This document shows, one piece after another, positions 1 through 6,196 of a stretch of 31,240 nucleotides of DNA (position 1 is the first letter of the stretch; every line of letters starts with the position of its first letter). The DNA lies in NCBI GenBank assembly GCA_039024555.1, contig JBCCQQ010000070.1, positions 1 to 31,240 of the forward strand, given 5' to 3'. This DNA comes from Cyanobacteria bacterium P01_D01_bin.156. GTDB taxonomy: Bacteria > Cyanobacteriota > Cyanobacteriia > Phormidesmidales > Phormidesmidaceae. The notes under the pieces were generated by a model, which was not told the DNA's origin, ran no database searches, and saw only the letters and a list, made by a program, of their open reading frames with translations. Made by a program: the position numbers and the translations under genes.

Positions 1-369
1 CATTTTCATTGTGATTGAGAACGGCAATCTCCTGTCCACTCTGGCTATCCCACAACCGCGCCGTAGCGTCCAAACTGGCGGTGGCAACCGTGTGGCCATC
101 GGGGCTAAAACTCACCGCTCTGACATTTTCATTGTGATTGAGAACGGCAATCTCCTGCCCACTCTGGCTATCCCACAACCGCGCCGTAGCGTCCAAACTG
201 GCGGTGGCAACCGTGTGGCCATCGGGGCTAAAACTCACCGCATTGACATTTTCATTGTGATTGAGAACGGCAATCTCCTGTCCACTCTGGCTATCCCACA
301 ACCGCGCCGTAGCGTCCAAACTGGCGGTGGCAACCGTGTGGCCATCGGGGCTAAAACTCACCGCTCTGA
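1..369. repeat. Three tandem 123-bp repeats encoding 41-aa WD40 units
   Basis: Units start at 1, 124 and 247. Units 1 and 3 are identical; unit 2 differs at 3 nt (158, 242, 243). Minus-strand peptide V[R/N]AVSFSPDGHTVATASLDATARLWDSQSGQEIAVLNHNEN. Confidence 0.95.
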
Positions 370-2191
370 CCTCTGCATCGTGACTGAGTCGCGCAATTTC
401 GGGAGCCATTAAGGTGTAATTGCGCAGTGCGCTGTCTGCTTCCCCTCGGCTAATGTTGTTTTTGGCAGTACCTGCTTGTATCAGCCGTTGACTAGATTCA
501 ATCGCAAGCAAAATGCTAGTGGGTAACAAGTTACCACGTAAACCCCGGGTGATCTCTGATTGAGCTGCAAGCTGACGACCCAAAGCAATTTTCGATTGTT
601 CTTCTGCAACTTGTGTGGCTGCTTCTGCTTGCAAACGCCGCTCCTCTGCATTCTGTCGAGCGCTTGTTTCCGCTTCCCGTGCGACTGTCTCTGCCTGCTC
701 TGCCTGCTCTGCCTCTAGCTGCCGTTGTTCTGCCAACAGTCGTTGTTCCGCTTCAATAGCTTTTGCCTCCTCAGCCTGTTGGCGCGCTACTTCTGCTTCA
801 TCGCGCTCTTTTTCTGCTAACCCTTCTGCTGCTAAGGCTCTTATTGCCGCTCGTTTTGCATTATCAGCTGCCGTTGTTGCAATATCTCTTTGTCTTTTAA
901 TTTCTTCATTCTGTGCTTCTAGATCTACTAGATAGCTTTCAGCCCTATCTGACTCGGACTGAGCCCTAGCTCGTTCTACTAAAGCCCAAGTTGCCAACCC
1001 AGACAGTCCCCCCATCACCAACAAACTAGCCGCAATCGTCCCTTGCAACTGCCGTATCCGCTTCCGCCAGTTCACCGGCAAGTTATCCCTCACCCAAGCC
1101 CCATCAAACACCCGCGCATAAATCCCATTGCGCACCCGCAGGGTCTTATCCACTTCTCGCTTTACCACCCCCGACAGTTTCAAATGAGACTTTATCAACG
1201 ACTGCTCATCATCCACCACCGGCTGCCGCCCAGCCCACACATCCCGATACGTGGTCAACACGTCATAAATCTCATGGTCACTCTCCGTCAACATCCCCCG
1301 CACAAACTGCAGGTTGTTGTCCCGCTCCGCCATCAACCCAAAAAACGTAGCAGCCACCGCATCATCCACTGCCCGCTTTGTCCAGCCCCTTACTTGGCCT
1401 TCCCCTTCACTACTCTCCGCCAAAGCCCGACATAGCTGCTGCGTTAAATAAGGATGTCCCCCCGTCCATCCCATCACCCACTCCATCACCTTCTCCGCCT
1501 CCAGCTGAGGCAATCCCAGTCCTGCTGCCAACGGCCCCACTTCTGCTAGTGTAAAGTCCGTCAGGTCCACCCGCTGCCCCACATTAAACGGCGTCCGCTG
1601 CCGGTCTTGGATCAGATTTCCTGGTGTTGCCACCCCAATCAACACAAACGACAGCCGCTTAAATACAGGCTTCACCGCCCGCGACACCGCAAAGTACCGA
1701 ATCGCCACAAAAAAGTCGTCGGTAAAGTCGATACCCAAGGTGGTGTCAATCTCATCCACAAAAATAACAATCGGGGCCGTCACCTCCGCTAGCAGCACCT
1801 GCTCCATAAATAGCGAAAACCGCTTCGATGGCCCTAGATCCCGATTCTCCTGCCACCACTTCCGCACCTGGGTATCCAGCTCAATATCCTGCTCGTCCAG
1901 CGCTTCCTCTAGCGACACCAAAAAATTCAGATACCACTGGTCCACCGACACCAGCTTCCCTGAAACCTGCAGGTCAACAATCACCGACACAATGCCATCA
2001 TCCGCCAGCCGCTCCGCCGTCCGCACCATCAGGCTACTTTTACCCATCTGCCGCGCCGTCAGCACATAAGCAAACGTCCCCTCTTTGCACAGCGCCAACA
2101 GCTCACCATCTGCCTTGCGCAGCACATACACCCCACTCCCCGCCTGCACAGGCCCACCAACCGTATAAAACCCAGGATTCGGCGTACTCAT
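1..2191 (-). CDS. AAA-like (AAA_35/STAND-type) ATPase + TM helix + coiled coil + WD40 repeat protein, 3' truncated by the window edge
   Basis: Translated by hand from ATG at 2191 (MSTPNPGFYTVGGPVQAGSGVYV...), open for 730 codons to the window edge. Walker A TARQMGKSS, Walker B IVIFVDEID, TPFNVGQ, WTGGHPYLTQ, hydrophobic GTIAASLLVMGGLSGLATWALV, an Ala/Glu/Arg-rich coil, then WD40 repeats. Absent from the ORF track because its stop lies outside the window. Confidence 0.92.
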   Translation of the reverse strand, partial: MSTPNPGFYTVGGPVQAGSGVYVLRKADGELLALCKEGTFAYVLTARQMGKSSLMVRTAERLADDGIVSVIVDLQVSGKLVSVDQWYLNFLVSLEEALDEQDIELDTQVRKWWQENRDLGPSKRFSLFMEQVLLAEVTAPIVIFVDEIDTTLGIDFTDDFFVAIRYFAVSRAVKPVFKRLSFVLIGVATPGNLIQDRQRTPFNVGQRVDLTDFTLAEVGPLAAGLGLPQLEAEKVMEWVMGWTGGHPYLTQQLCRALAESSEGEGQVRGWTKRAVDDAVAATFFGLMAERDNNLQFVRGMLTESDHEIYDVLTTYRDVWAGRQPVVDDEQSLIKSHLKLSGVVKREVDKTLRVRNGIYARVFDGAWVRDNLPVNWRKRIRQLQGTIAASLLVMGGLSGLATWALVERARAQSESDRAESYLVDLEAQNEEIKRQRDIATTAADNAKRAAIRALAAEGLAEKERDEAEVARQQAEEAKAIEAEQRLLAEQRQLEAEQAEQAETVAREAETSARQNAEERRLQAEAATQVAEEQSKIALGRQLAAQSEITRGLRGNLLPTSILLAIESSQRLIQAGTAKNNISRGEADSALRNYTLMAPEIARLSHDAEVRAVSFSPDGHTVATASLDATARLWDSQSGQEIAVLNHNENVNAVSFSPDGHTVATASLDATARLWDSQSGQEIAVLNHNENVRAVSFSPDGHTVATASLDATARLWDSQSGQEIAVLNHNEN

Positions 2192-2299
2192 AGGACTACT
2201 AAGAGAGAACTGTTAATACGTGTGGACATTGAAAACTCATCTGAGAAAGACATAATTCACATAAGGAGGCTCGTGCTAAACAACAAGGCGATAACCTGA

Positions 2300-4741
2300 T
2301 TAATCGACCCCGCCGTATCCCCTTTTTAATGCCATTGAGAATAACCTAGTAGGCTGGGTCCTAGGGCGGCCTCCCGGCCCTAGCCATGGGGGTTTGGGGA
2401 ACTCGGAGGGACCCCAAGCAACCGGTTTTGATTCCTTCCGATCATCTCTCGATTCAGTATGAACGAAGTCATAAGCCTCACAAAAAATCTCTGGTGAAAA
2501 CGAAACAACCTTGCCTTCTAAAGGGAAGAACTGAGCTATCCCAAAATCTCCCCCCATACTCCCCCCATACAAATGCTTCCGAAAATACTCCGCATACAGC
2601 TCGCACCGCGCCACCGCGCCAGTCTCCGTCTTCCGCACCAGCCCAGCACCCTCCAGCCGCCACACCAGCTTCTCATCCCCACAAGACTGACTCCGCAAAA
2701 TCTCCATCAGCCCTCGGGTCAAATCCACCTGCCCCTTCAACCGAAACAAATGCCGTCGCAAATGCCCACCAAATGGTCCCTGGGCCGCACTCGCCGTCTT
2801 AAAAAAGGTCTTCGCCGTATACTCCTTCGTCGCAATCAGGTACAACGCCCGCCGCACCAAATACGGATGCCCCGCTAACAGTCGCATCAGCTCTTTCAAC
2901 TCACCTACACCAAACGGATTTCCATGGCGTTCGTTTAGCTCCGCCACCTGCGCTGCCGAAAAGTCCTGTAGCCGCAGCGTTTGTCCCACATTAAACGGCG
3001 ACTGGTTCAAATCAGCAATCAGCTGATACGGTTCTGTGGAAATCACTAACACCTGGCTAAACTGTCGCCATACTTTGCTCATGGCTCGCTTGTTATGCCA
3101 GCTGCGCAACATGCCAAAAAAGTCTGACCGAAATGGGGTATCCAGTACCCGATCCACTTCGTCCATAGCCAGCACCAAGGGCTCATCGATTTCCTTAAGC
3201 ACATAGCGCTTCATGTAACTGGTGCAAATTTTAGGTAGGGGCAAATCCTCATCCCAATAGTCATCAAGGCGGTTGGGTAGGTCCAGCTCATCCGCTAAGA
3301 ACCGACAAAACTGTCGGAAAAAGCGCTGCCGATTTTCCAATGCAGGCTGGTCAAATAACTGAAAATCCAGAAACACCACCTGCCGATCTTGATCCACTGC
3401 GCTGGCAATCATACGATTTAGCAATGAGCTTTTGCCCATCTGCCGCGCCCCTTTGATGATCACCGTGCCTTCCTGGGCATCAATGGCGGTTTGTCCCCGC
3501 CGGTCCTCGGCCCGCTCAATGTAAAACTTGGATTCCAGAGCCATGGTCCCCTGATCCGGCGACTCCAGGGAAACGGGCTGGGCTGAAGATGCTGGGTTGG
3601 GAATTTCATCTTCTGTCTGATGGTCCAACAGGTCCTTTTTGGCATCATCGGCAATGGGCAACGGCACACCCTCTATAGCCTTGATCAGTTCTGCGATCAG
3701 ATCGCCTGTGTCGTCATCATCTTCCCAAAAGGCCCAGTTCAGCGGGTCCAAATACTGGTTTAACGGATACTGAAATGGTTTTCGATAGGTCAGCCGCACG
3801 GGCAAAATGCGGGGTTTTCCGTTAGCGCTAGCAAATCGATGGGCCAGCTCCACCTCATGCTCCACCATTTCGCTATGCACGGAATGCTCCGACAGCAGCA
3901 CGATCAGCACATCGGATTGCTTTAGTTCAGCATTAATGTGCTCAGCCCATGGGGTACCCACCGGCATTTGCTGGTCAATAAAGACTTCATGGTTTGTCTG
4001 TAATGCTTCAAAGAGCTGCTTAGCAACGGGCTCATCCGGCGTCATATCCCGTTTATAGCTAATAAAAATCCGTGACTTTGTGGCAGTTTCTTTCTCAGGG
4101 ATTGCCTCGCTAGGCGTCTCCGCCTCACTTTTACGCTTGAGCACCGGAATATGATCCTCTGGAATCCTTTGCAGCTCCAGCGAATTCCGCCCCAGCTTGT
4201 AGGCAAACTCCACATCTTTACCTGCCCCCAGCCCTCGGTAAAATCCCTCCGCAAACCGAATCGCGGCGGTATCCCCAATGGGTTGGTTCATGCCAATGAC
4301 AGCATCAATGTGCTCCACAATGGCTTCCGCCTGCACCTCGGAATAGCAGGCATTCAGCACCACACACTTCACCTGACCAGCAAATAACTCAAATAAATTT
4401 GCTAGAGCCTGAGAGTCCACAAACTTCCCCATGCCCTGGTCATCTTCAAACACCAGTCCTTGATCGCCTTCCCCATGGCCACAAAAGTGCACAATCTGTG
4501 GATTGTAGTCCAGCAGCGCTTGCTGAATATCGCTGGGACGAGTCGCAGTCTGGGGCTTTAGCTCAAACAGATCCCGCTTCTTCGCCCGCTGTAGTACAGA
4601 TTCAATCTCACGCACCTCTTCCTCCAGACGCAGTCTGGAAGAGTCCAATGGATTTGCAGCTAAATTAGAATCCTTTGCACCGGGGGCATGGGCAAATTGG
4701 CTGGAAGAATGCGTCTTGAATATACTCCACGCTTTCAGCAA
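2300..4741 (-). CDS. CHAT (caspase-like protease) - TIR - AAA_35 ATPase protein; probable native start at 4689 is out of frame (frameshift or sequencing error)
   Basis: CHAT motifs AANP, IVHFCGHG, VVLNACYS; TIR motifs RIFISYKR, VFID, SEMVEHEVELA; Walker A GARQMGKSS, Walker B LAMDEVD, SPFNVGQ, AGHPYL. Confidence 0.88.
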   Translation of the reverse strand: MLKAWSIFKTHSSSQFAHAPGAKDSNLAANPLDSSRLRLEEEVREIESVLQRAKKRDLFELKPQTATRPSDIQQALLDYNPQIVHFCGHGEGDQGLVFEDDQGMGKFVDSQALANLFELFAGQVKCVVLNACYSEVQAEAIVEHIDAVIGMNQPIGDTAAIRFAEGFYRGLGAGKDVEFAYKLGRNSLELQRIPEDHIPVLKRKSEAETPSEAIPEKETATKSRIFISYKRDMTPDEPVAKQLFEALQTNHEVFIDQQMPVGTPWAEHINAELKQSDVLIVLLSEHSVHSEMVEHEVELAHRFASANGKPRILPVRLTYRKPFQYPLNQYLDPLNWAFWEDDDDTGDLIAELIKAIEGVPLPIADDAKKDLLDHQTEDEIPNPASSAQPVSLESPDQGTMALESKFYIERAEDRRGQTAIDAQEGTVIIKGARQMGKSSLLNRMIASAVDQDRQVVFLDFQLFDQPALENRQRFFRQFCRFLADELDLPNRLDDYWDEDLPLPKICTSYMKRYVLKEIDEPLVLAMDEVDRVLDTPFRSDFFGMLRSWHNKRAMSKVWRQFSQVLVISTEPYQLIADLNQSPFNVGQTLRLQDFSAAQVAELNERHGNPFGVGELKELMRLLAGHPYLVRRALYLIATKEYTAKTFFKTASAAQGPFGGHLRRHLFRLKGQVDLTRGLMEILRSQSCGDEKLVWRLEGAGLVRKTETGAVARCELYAEYFRKHLYGGSMGGDFGIAQFFPLEGKVVSFSPEIFCEAYDFVHTESRDDRKESKPVAWGPSEFPKPPWLGPGGRPRTQPTRLFSMALKRGYGGVD
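2361..2428. repeat. Short GC-rich double-hairpin interspersed element
   Basis: CTAGGGC...GCCCTAG (2361-2383) and TTGGGG...CCCCAA (2394-2417) stems; the second shares the CCCCAA/TTGGGG motif with the element at 7909. Confidence 0.4.
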
Positions 4742-4857
4742 TAAATATTATTTGTTAGAGTTTCGTTAGATTAATCAGCACGTTTAGGAGCTGTAATATC
4801 TTGGACGTAGAAGTTGTCTCGATTACGTCAAAATAGTAATGATTTAGAAGCAAAATT

Positions 4858-5412
4858 ATGGTTGCACTTCCAGCCGGGTTTAGCCCTCAAGAATACTTGG
4901 CTCTAGAGTACGAAAACACAATTCGTCACGAATATCGCCAGGGCTTAGTCTATGCCATGGCAGGCGGCAGCGATGACCATAGCCGTATTGCCATTAACTT
5001 TCTTACTGCTCTAAACCTGCACCTGCGCGATGGCACTTGCCAGTTCTTCTCCGGTGATGTCAAAGTCAACTACGCCGACGACTTTTTCTATTACCCAGAT
5101 GCCTTTGTCATCTGCAATCCAAACGACCGAAAAGATCGCTACGTAAAACGCTATCCTAAATTAATCACCGAAGTCTTATCTCCTGCCACCAAAGACTTTG
5201 ATAGAAGCGATAAATTTAAAGACTATGCCCTGCTATCTTCCTTAGAAGAATATGTCTTGATTGAACAAGATACCCAACAAGTGGAATGCCGTCATTGTAT
5301 AGGTGCCCAGTGGGAAACCATCATTTATTCCATTGACGAACAAGTCACCTTCAAAAGCATTAACTTGACACTACCTATCGAAGAACTCTATCGCGGTACC
5401 AGCATTGTTTAG
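4858..5412 (+). CDS. Uma2 family (DUF820) putative restriction-like endonuclease
   Basis: EY..G.VYAMAGGS..H..I, YYPDAFVIC, PKLITEVLSPAT...DRSDKFKDY...SLEEYVLIEQD. Confidence 0.92.
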   Translation: MVALPAGFSPQEYLALEYENTIRHEYRQGLVYAMAGGSDDHSRIAINFLTALNLHLRDGTCQFFSGDVKVNYADDFFYYPDAFVICNPNDRKDRYVKRYPKLITEVLSPATKDFDRSDKFKDYALLSSLEEYVLIEQDTQQVECRHCIGAQWETIIYSIDEQVTFKSINLTLPIEELYRGTSIV

Positions 5413-5602
5413 AAAATCTCTTATCTCAAGGTGTTGCTCCCCTTCTTAATCAAGATGCCAAAATCTTGTGTATGGGTGATCGGATGGCCACGCCACATTG
5501 TGCGCTGATAGCCAAGACTTTTATGAGATCAATTCAGCCATAAGGATGCCCAATAGCCAATGCTATACTAGAGAAAGCGGCTGTCCAGATCCGTTTGAGG
5601 CT

Positions 5603-6196
5603 ATGACTATCACTCTCAGGCCATCCCCTATTCAAGTAGAAATCAATAACGGAGATGTTTGCACCCTACAGCAGCATCGAACTTGGGCACAGTTTAAGCA
5701 CTTACAAAAAGGGTTTGAAAACAGCTCTGGGGTCAGACTGTTTTATTACAATGGCACTATTGAAATTCTGTTGCCAGGGGAGGCACACGAGCTATTCAAA
5801 AGCTTAATTGGTTTTTTAATCGAACTATTTCTATTTCATCGAGAAATTGAGTTTAAACCAACCGGCTCAATGACCCAGGAAAAGACCGGTGTAGCTTCTG
5901 CCGAAGCGGATGAATCCTACGAAATCCAAGGTTTTAAGCTGGCTGTTGAAGTCAACTTTACCAGTGGTGATACATCCAAGCTTCTACGCTACAAGGCTTT
6001 GGATGTGAATAAGGTATGGATATGGGAGGATGGCATTCTCAGTGCTTACCATTTGCAAGCGGGTAACTATCAAAAAGTGACAGCTAGTCTGATTCCTGCT
6101 TTATCACTACTGGATTTAGAAATATTGTCAGAGTGTATTCTGTTGGGAGAAACCTCCAGACTTGAAGCTGGAAAGAAATTACTAGGTACGCTGTAG
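5603..6196 (+). CDS. Uma2 family putative endonuclease
   Basis: TW.QF, RLFYYNGTIEIL.PG..HE, TGSMT, EADESY, LAVEVNFTSG, VWIWEDG. In-frame ATG at 5603 preferred over the TTG at 5498. Confidence 0.85.
   Translation: MTITLRPSPIQVEINNGDVCTLQQHRTWAQFKHLQKGFENSSGVRLFYYNGTIEILLPGEAHELFKSLIGFLIELFLFHREIEFKPTGSMTQEKTGVASAEADESYEIQGFKLAVEVNFTSGDTSKLLRYKALDVNKVWIWEDGILSAYHLQAGNYQKVTASLIPALSLLDLEILSECILLGETSRLEAGKKLLGTL

Follow-up and report, generated by a model that had tools for sequence, protein, structure and literature searches.

The bacterial STAND receptors that have been tested in the literature surveyed are single chains that sense phage proteins. In this study, we analyzed a stretch of 31,240 nucleotides (nt) from Cyanobacteria bacterium P01_D01_bin.156 (the window, which is contig C70 of a 6.6-Mb genome that is 99% complete). 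It contains two neighboring genes on the minus strand, here called A and B, each of which encodes a STAND ATPase of the AAA_35 type. The A protein joins its ATPase to a CHAT protease domain and a TIR domain, and the B protein carries, behind its ATPase, a predicted transmembrane (TM) helix and an array of WD40 repeats. The A/B pair was found to be a real and conserved paired-STAND architecture that is apparently untested. No study of the pair and no experiment on it was found in the literature searched, most subscription papers lying outside the search, and the initial annotation of this DNA had likewise known of no experimental characterization.

The nSTAND2 systems are two-gene operons that encode two STAND-core proteins, for which a toroidal hetero-multimer has been proposed, with variable effectors placed on one subunit (accessible part of PMC8195603). 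The pair in the window is also a two-STAND operon with variable effectors on one subunit. However, nSTAND2 has one eroded NTPase and uses GT4 or HEPN as effector, whereas the subfamily in the window keeps its Walker motifs, has N-terminal TIR and CHAT domains and would have a membrane receptor as its partner; neither GT4 nor HEPN was found among 79 A N-termini. PMC8195603 also names an Npun2340/2341 family of STANDs, a name that points to two consecutive genes. In the accessible part of that paper, the name covers single NTPase-FGS or NTPase-TPR proteins, and no A/B division, TM helix, fusions or hypervariable repeats are described.

A structural model of the A ATPase (predicted local distance difference test score, pLDDT, of 92) comprises a nucleotide-binding domain (NBD), a GxP helical domain and a winged helix, which is the STAND fold; this assignment was modelled on the A ATPase alone. 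Its best structural matches were the archaeal ATPases 2qen (Z of 20.9, root-mean-square deviation of 4.1, 301 residues aligned) and 2fna (20.2, 4.0 and 299, respectively), which led by about 4 Z units over the plant resistosomes and CED-4 that followed, the model being aligned over its whole length. A sequence search against solved structures gave RecA P-loop matches only. We take 2qen and 2fna to be of the MNS type. The Npun2340/2341 family was reportedly described by Leipe et al. in 2004 as a STAND family of the MNS clade that is rich in cyanobacteria and named after two consecutive Nostoc genes. The AAA_35 pair probably corresponds to this family, which has fusions to TIR, HTH and WD40. It is probable that the family, and paired prokaryotic STANDs in general, have been noticed computationally before. 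The present analysis adds the fusions, the arrays of several B per A, the wide range of inputs and outputs, the het-e-like repeat variation in a probably outward-facing sensor and the two lesions of the window copy.

The Avs and bNACHT proteins share with the pair a STAND ATPase, a repeat sensor, TIR or protease effectors and activation through oligomers (accessible part of PMC13581612). They are, however, single polypeptides and cytoplasmic sensors of phage proteins, whereas the window has two ATPases, which are also split between two genes in 70 of 80 related loci, and a sensor placed after a TM helix. The family models of PADLOC and NCBIfam gave only partial CHAT and TIR hits for A, below the cut-off where one is given, and no defense model for B; the 2023 PADLOC release used is without the newer Avs families. 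PMC13581612 surveys STAND clades and WD40 sensors, and its accessible part mentions neither pairs nor membrane receptors; the names AAA_35, Npun and pfam14516 were not found in its supplements (file 3 excepted).

Pairing and proposed contact of the two ATPases

The genome carries 13 AAA_35 matches, 12 of which fall in six A+B pairs. Two pairs combine a CHAT-TIR-A with a B-WD40 (that of the window and a paralog on contig C66), one combines a TIR-A with a B-CHAT, and three combine an A with a helix-turn-helix (HTH)-like N-terminus with a B-CHASE2 or B-WD40, the HTH label of these A genes being an Atlas lead (0.86 to HTH_VMAP-M9). Related loci, which are the best 80 of 573 matches to the window's own A type, a choice in which TIR is over-represented, span cyanobacteria, Chloroflexota, Acidobacteriota and Myxococcota, among others, and those nearest to the window's pair are cyanobacterial. 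In 70 of the 80, A and B are no more than 3 kb apart (63 in the order A>B, three B>A and four divergent), and the gap is within about 60 nt in 43 of the 63 A>B loci. The remaining ten comprise four at a contig edge, one with B at 3.3 kb and five without B in the flank covered. WD40-bearing B genes, by motif, accompany 16 of the 22 loci with CHAT motifs. In a sample across the phylum, a B match was present in 12 of 13 genomes of the same class, often in many copies, and in none of 27 others. The initial annotation had proposed adjacent genes with the effector on one, the sensor on the other and effectors swapped among relatives, and the neighborhood survey bears this out. A close ortholog (>55% identity) was found in only 1 of 20 congeners, in another neighborhood.

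The two co-oriented genes do encode one type of ATPase, with the motifs RQMGKSS, hhhhDE.D, PFNVGQ and GHPYL, as first annotated; both scored far above the curated Pfam cut-off of 27 bits for AAA_35 (PF14516), and Pfam found all four of the domains named for checking (CHAT, TIR_2, AAA_35 and WD40). The two ATPases are 32% identical over 244 aa and form separate clades (support 100/100 in a tree of 60 rows subsampled from 153 sequences). Both have the P-loop with Walker A GK[ST] and Walker B hhhhD[ED] that defines STAND NTPases. The Walker A Lys is kept in 83 of 83 A and 69 of 70 B proteins and the Walker B Glu in 81 of 83 and 69 of 70, and GHPYL is conserved in both types. Within this genome, the three HTH-type A proteins are the only members of either class with a changed Walker B. 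Exact DNA stretches shared by the two genes, which the initial annotation had pointed out, are real (16 nt at 3000/1593 and 15 nt at 3449/2057), but they are merely codon matches in the two best-conserved motifs. A recent duplication was considered on their account and rejected, the A and B types being deep, separate clades.

B-A fusion proteins occur in four genomes, and in several genomes two to four B genes lie beside one A, as seen in ten regions hand-picked from the output of the phylum sample; in two of the fusions (L122 and L123) the linker is short. Prediction of the A-B ATPase complex gave a score of 0.60 against 0.00 for the best control, with runs sharing 95% or more of their contacts and pLDDT not below 83, from alignments of six rows only. 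In the calibration, 116 of 157 solved pairs and 2 of 215 mismatched pairs attained this mark, but those that did so with a score of 0.60 or less were only 18 of the 157 solved pairs and both of the mismatches, so the score is weak. The distances among A proteins correlate with those among B proteins (r = 0.92, 70 pairs); common descent would produce this correlation as well, and we do not take it to prove that the two proteins touch. The predicted complex, added to the fusions and the coupling, lends weak support to direct contact. The hetero-oligomerization through the ATPases that was proposed in the initial annotation is in agreement with the STAND fold, the natural fusions and, weakly, the prediction, and we consider a direct A-B oligomer probable. 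It is also conceivable that A and B act in the same pathway as separate homo-oligomers and are coupled indirectly, whether a third protein or a diffusible nucleotide carries the signal or CHAT cleaves B. The full Walker motifs in both proteins of this subfamily, the A genes that stand alone and the presence of one A beside several B would fit this idea; the short-linker fusions, the fact that A often has no enzyme besides its ATPase and the complex prediction, weak as it is, argue against it, and we consider it improbable.

In NAIP/NLRC4 and in the sensor/helper NLR pairs of plants, a sensor ATPase works with an executor ATPase, and several sensors can serve one executor. The A/B pairs show the same genetic linkage of sensor and executor as NLR pairs, and the arrays of two to four B per A resemble the plant sensor/helper networks, but the ATPases belong to another STAND clade, leucine-rich repeats are absent and the sensor would span the membrane.

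The single proteins with B followed by A are L120:12759-15041, L121:14337-17051, L122:6286-8541 and L123:8374-10545; a TM helix was not detected in them, and one has a cyclase domain between its ATPases. Two to four tandem B-type WD40 receptor genes follow one A in L118, L119 and L125.

Probable membrane topology, repeat variation and proposed output of the pair

The B gene was first described as carrying a WD40 array only. The array is present, but this description leaves out the TM helix, which the title of that annotation does name, and the coiled-coil-like stalk. With one threshold, a TM-like helix follows the ATPase in six of six B and none of six A proteins of the genome. Among the relatives, such a helix was found in 58 of 62 B tails and in none of 78 A proteins, with thresholds of 1.6 and 1.9, respectively. 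The N side of the helix is the more positive one in 50 of 63 B proteins, and the basic stretch before the helix suggests that the N-terminus is inside and the C-terminus outside. An outward position of the WD40 repeats is indicated because CHASE2 and a periplasmic binding domain replace them after the helix in relatives, and because the last repeat is followed by two or more Cys in 29 of the 30 WD40-bearing B proteins that are complete. We hold it quite probable that B is a transmembrane receptor with its WD40 repeats outside the cytoplasm, and a cytoplasmic sensor of the NLR type is not supported. A split intracellular NLR, with cytoplasmic WD40 repeats, a buried or re-entrant helix and recognition of a phage protein as by Avs, would nonetheless be consistent with the hydropathy of the window's helix, which is only 1.71, with the WD40-bearing B proteins in which no helix was detected and with the classing of STAND proteins with WD40 sensors as defense associated (accessible part of PMC13581612). 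The consistency of the helix among B tails, the charge bias, the Cys pair and the exchange for CHASE2 and periplasmic binding domains, together with the lack of a match to the Avs and bNACHT models, make it improbable.

The Podospora HNWD proteins, including those of het-d and het-e, have WD40 repeats of high identity in which two codon pairs 18 apart are variable (accessible parts of PMC1805685 and PMC4986451), and in het-e diversifying selection acts on codons 7, 9, 25 and 27 at the top face of the propeller (PMC1805685, in part). In the window's array, the eight regular units share 84% DNA and 82% protein identity, irregular units being excluded, which is just below the 85% mark for internal identity given in the accessible part of PMC4986451. 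Nonsynonymous and synonymous differences per site (pN and pS) in these eight units are 0.47 and 0.19 at six positions, chosen after the protein repeats had been viewed, and 0.05 and 0.33 elsewhere. The most variable positions are 4, 6, 22 and 24, which have the same spacing as the het-e codons. Judged by these identity, pN and pS values, the array shows the signature of HNWD-like repeats, high identity with four varying top-face codons. Every one of 15 other arrays likewise had a higher pN at these sites than elsewhere. These repeats, homogenized and yet variable, suggest the sensing of non-self. The HNWD proteins themselves are cytoplasmic single chains of HET, NACHT and WD40, whereas B has neither NACHT nor HET according to Pfam. 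In the fifth repeat region, that of L006 (contig C91), one WD40 unit has an insertion of 14 residues and three have one extra residue in the variable loop, so that length varies on the same WD40 surface as the substitutions.

We propose that B is a single-pass receptor made of a cytoplasmic class B ATPase, a TM helix, a stalk and a double WD40 propeller with probable disulfide closure, and that A is a soluble output subunit in which a class A ATPase is joined to a CHAT protease and a TIR domain. Binding of an extracytoplasmic ligand would cluster B, and its ATPase domains would seed a mixed oligomer of B and A. The TIR domains brought together in this way would cleave NAD+ or make a signal nucleotide, the CHAT domains would carry out proteolysis with their His and Cys, and the cell would stop growing or die. 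In the subfamily with TIR/CHAT and homogenized WD40 repeats, the switch would probably serve non-self recognition at the envelope, directed at a phage, a predator, a competitor or a non-kin filament; in other subfamilies the same ATPase pair would have transcriptional or second-messenger outputs. Taken as a whole, this two-subunit STAND switch with a ligand-triggered mixed oligomer is a reading for which we see the balance as even.

The effectors of A were correctly annotated: the CHAT motifs HFCGHG and LNAC and the TIR motif SEMVEHEVELA were all found. Both CHAT motifs are present in 21 of the 22 motif-bearing relatives, and the Glu of the TIR EMVxxE helix, for which a catalytic role may be assumed by reference to known TIR NADases, is kept in 75 of 79 aligned A N-termini. 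Three features point to a role of the TIR/CHAT subfamily in conflict, because the presumed catalytic residues are kept, the ortholog is patchy and often broken, and the repeats are homogenized yet variable. An immune or death output appears somewhat favored. The immune system of the initial annotation can be retained for the TIR/CHAT subfamily at most, since the same ATPase pair also has regulatory outputs.

The 79 A N-termini carry TIR_2 (76), CHAT (23), a sigma70-r4 HTH (8), a Ser/Thr kinase (6), PNPase (1) and a cyclase (1), and A genes elsewhere carry GGDEF or a LuxR HTH. In B relatives, WD40 is replaced by CHASE2 or a periplasmic binding domain, and also by FGE-sulfatase, TPR or CHAT, and the inputs further include GUN4 and GAF. 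Because A and B carry HTH, kinase, cyclase and GGDEF outputs and CHASE2, periplasmic-binding and GAF inputs, the pair is, as far as its domains tell, a general transducer beyond immunity. These parts favor an ordinary environmental or developmental signaling module, a STAND analog of the two-component system, in which TIR and CHAT give low-level outputs and are not death effectors. Proteins of the kinase-AAA_16-GAF type end in a B ATPase, at a C-terminus that usually houses a His kinase, and the presence of the pair in most of the genomes sampled from the class, often in many copies, and the lack of defense neighbors are in line with such a module. What speaks against it in the TIR/CHAT subfamily is the retention of the TIR Glu and of the CHAT His and Cys, the homogenized and hypervariable sensor repeats, the patchy ortholog and the recurring lesions (in the window, G045, L009 and L044), which are expected of costly conflict genes; we regard it as unlikely. 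That A/B is a general membrane-crossing STAND system, in which up to four exchangeable receptors per locus feed one executor and the TIR/CHAT subfamily forms a diversifying, het-e-like WD40 non-self receptor, is a broader proposal that we put forward only tentatively.

Several observations weigh against the switch with a conflict output proposed above. The topology is deduced from hydropathy and from context, and in some B proteins the helix is followed by domains that are usually cytoplasmic or ambiguous (CHAT in L001). On the A side, half of the six pairs of the genome have nothing but an HTH-like N-terminus, TIR is favored by the choice of loci, and five of the 80 A genes have no B in a downstream flank of 5 to 8 kb, two of them with short upstream flanks. 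The complex score was not accompanied by a homodimer control (A-A or B-B), and part of it may reflect a resemblance to STAND or Cdc6/Orc1 oligomers of solved structure. As for the repeats, pN exceeded pS at the chosen sites in only 8 of the 15 other arrays, several of which are related Nostoc loci, and the top face varies in any WD40 propeller. No defense-island signal was seen among the neighbors: 12 of 147 flanking proteins matched PADLOC at E 1e-20, all generic, in a scan of 41 long loci that covered 147 of their 159 flanking proteins without a control set, so that enrichment is neither shown nor excluded.

If the proposal is true, pattern recognition in bacteria would reach out to the cell surface by means of a STAND of two chains whose sensor spans the membrane and diversifies, and the pair would be a simple model for the assembly of sensor/helper NLRs. 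Multicellular bacteria would have a surface receptor for non-self that triggers NAD+ cleavage and caspase-like proteolysis, a counterpart of Toll-like surface sensing and of sensor/helper NLR networks. Since inputs and outputs can be exchanged, the idea lends itself to testing; the damage to the window copy makes it ill suited to such work, and the C66 paralog or L008 would be better.

Some further arrangements were observed in these loci. The kinase-AAA_16-GAF proteins that end in a class B ATPase are L121:5799-12062 (whole), L123:220-6001 (split) and, cut by the edge of the region, L120:1-3969 and L127:12379-15999; in L120 and L123 an HTH-type A gene lies next to them. L036:6345-8999 is a class A protein with a ParA/MinD-like P-loop at its N-terminus, and a separate TIR-like gene lies just upstream. 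A gene that appears to encode a Ser/Thr kinase, a NACHT-like domain and multiple TM helices (L004:560-3253, G000:C17:71560-74253) lies directly upstream of an HTH-type pair.

State and surroundings of the window copy

The features of the two genes are compiled in Table 1.

Table 1. Features of genes A and B in the window; residue numbers refer to the respective reading frames.
Feature	Position	Strand	Remarks
Gene A, open reading frame (ORF) as read	2300-4741	minus	813 aa, from TTG at 4741
Gene A, native extent, CHAT-TIR-AAA_35 class A	2567..4689	minus	ATG 4689 to ATPase end
Frameshift site	4660..4664	minus	one base fewer than orthologs L008, L009, L010
CHAT (caspase-fold) protease domain	4208..4657	minus	Pfam CHAT, residues 29-178, E 1e-11, and motif positions
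CHAT His motif HFCGHG	4489-4472	minus
CHAT Cys motif LNAC	4357-4346	minus
TIR domain	3710..4069	minus	Pfam TIR_2, residues 225-344, E 2e-21
TIR EMVxxE helix with Glu	3874-3842	minus
Class A AAA_35 STAND-fold ATPase (NBD, GxP helical domain, winged helix)	2576..3553	minus	Pfam AAA_35, residues 397-722, E 4e-105, 351.8 bits
Gene A Walker A	3451-3425	minus
Gene A Walker B	3172-3152	minus
Insertion at A-B junction, ~370 nt	2194..2562	.	with dispersed repeat; native stop of A lost
Gene B, ORF	<2-2191	minus	730 aa, open at contig end
Class B AAA_35 ATPase module	1079..2191	minus	Pfam AAA_35, residues 13-259, E 2e-34, 119.1 bits; Pfam WD40 also in gene B
Gene B Walker A	2059-2033	minus
Gene B Walker B	1765-1745	minus
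Single predicted TM helix	980..1036	minus	residues 386-404, basic stretch before
Helical stalk and linker	383..979	minus	Ala/Glu/Gln/Arg-rich, coiled-coil-like (coiled coil inferred from composition)
First three WD40 repeats	2..382	minus	41 aa each (123-nt tandem units)

The window copy of the pair is decaying. The initial annotation gave the upstream gene only effector domains besides its ATPase; the domains are there, but the 813-aa ORF that holds them is not the native frame. Alignment of three orthologs (L008, L009 and L010) puts the native start at the ATG at 4689, and a deletion of 1 nt near 4661 (codon 9-10) brings the native frame to a stop at codon 10 (4662-4660). The frame from the TTG at 4741 bypasses the break, with the first CHAT strand replaced and a C-terminal read-through added. 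An assembly artifact is an unlikely cause: a contig of run X1 matches the window over 4467-5600 without gaps, frameshift site included, although X1 is possibly the source sample and so not independent, and in X3 one contig of related DNA has one base more behind 4661. Because gene A is frameshifted, an intact CHAT is unlikely to be made from this copy; a TIR-ATPase from an alternative start would be possible.

The second lesion lies at the junction of the two genes. In orthologs, gene A stops directly after the ATPase and B starts within 10-20 nt, and the insertion of the window is missing in L008, L010 and G045. A contig of X1 joins 2193 to 2563, and in that version the stop of A overlaps the ATG of B; its depth of 2.3 is low, so it is possibly an error. 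The 88-codon C-terminal tail of A was considered as a domain and rejected, since it is a read-through into an insertion that is missing in three orthologs. The insertion contains a dispersed repeat of about 250 nt (window 2275-2527) with a palindromic core of about 75 nt. Copies that are 80-90% identical lie on contigs C5, C89 (twice), C68, C26, C46 and C95, and shorter ones on about ten more; blastn gave 19 further matches in the genome, and the contig depth of the repeat was very high in all four runs. An Rfam scan of the insertion and its repeat gave no match. In appearance it resembles elements of the repetitive extragenic palindromic (REP) or miniature inverted-repeat transposable element (MITE) type.

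Gene B of the window looks intact when its continuation is included. The end of contig C91 overlaps the start of the window by 96 identical nt and supplies 12 more WD40 units, a tail with two Cys and a stop, giving about 1,300 aa in total; the overlap falls inside near-identical repeats, so the repeat number (about 15) is uncertain. The tail on C91 resembles that of the closest ortholog, in genome G045, and the stretch of L008 equivalent to the stalk has no Pfam match. We speculate that a truncated A could still serve as partner of this B, as could the A of the C66 paralog, which is intact and has an ATPase 54% identical to the window's; the B of that paralog is cut by the contig end.

Other copies are broken as well. 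The G045 ortholog, which is 94% identical, has its own, different interruption of about 160 nt within CHAT, and L009 and L044 are also broken. The closest ortholog pair (L128, G045:C44) has genes for a phage integrase and an AAA_25 protein in its vicinity, and its four WD40 repeats differ in sequence. Beside gene A of the window, positions 4858-6196 hold a gene of the Uma2 endonuclease fold and a second Uma2-like ORF without a Pfam match, and the remaining genes of the window resemble, by their translations, housekeeping and signaling genes.

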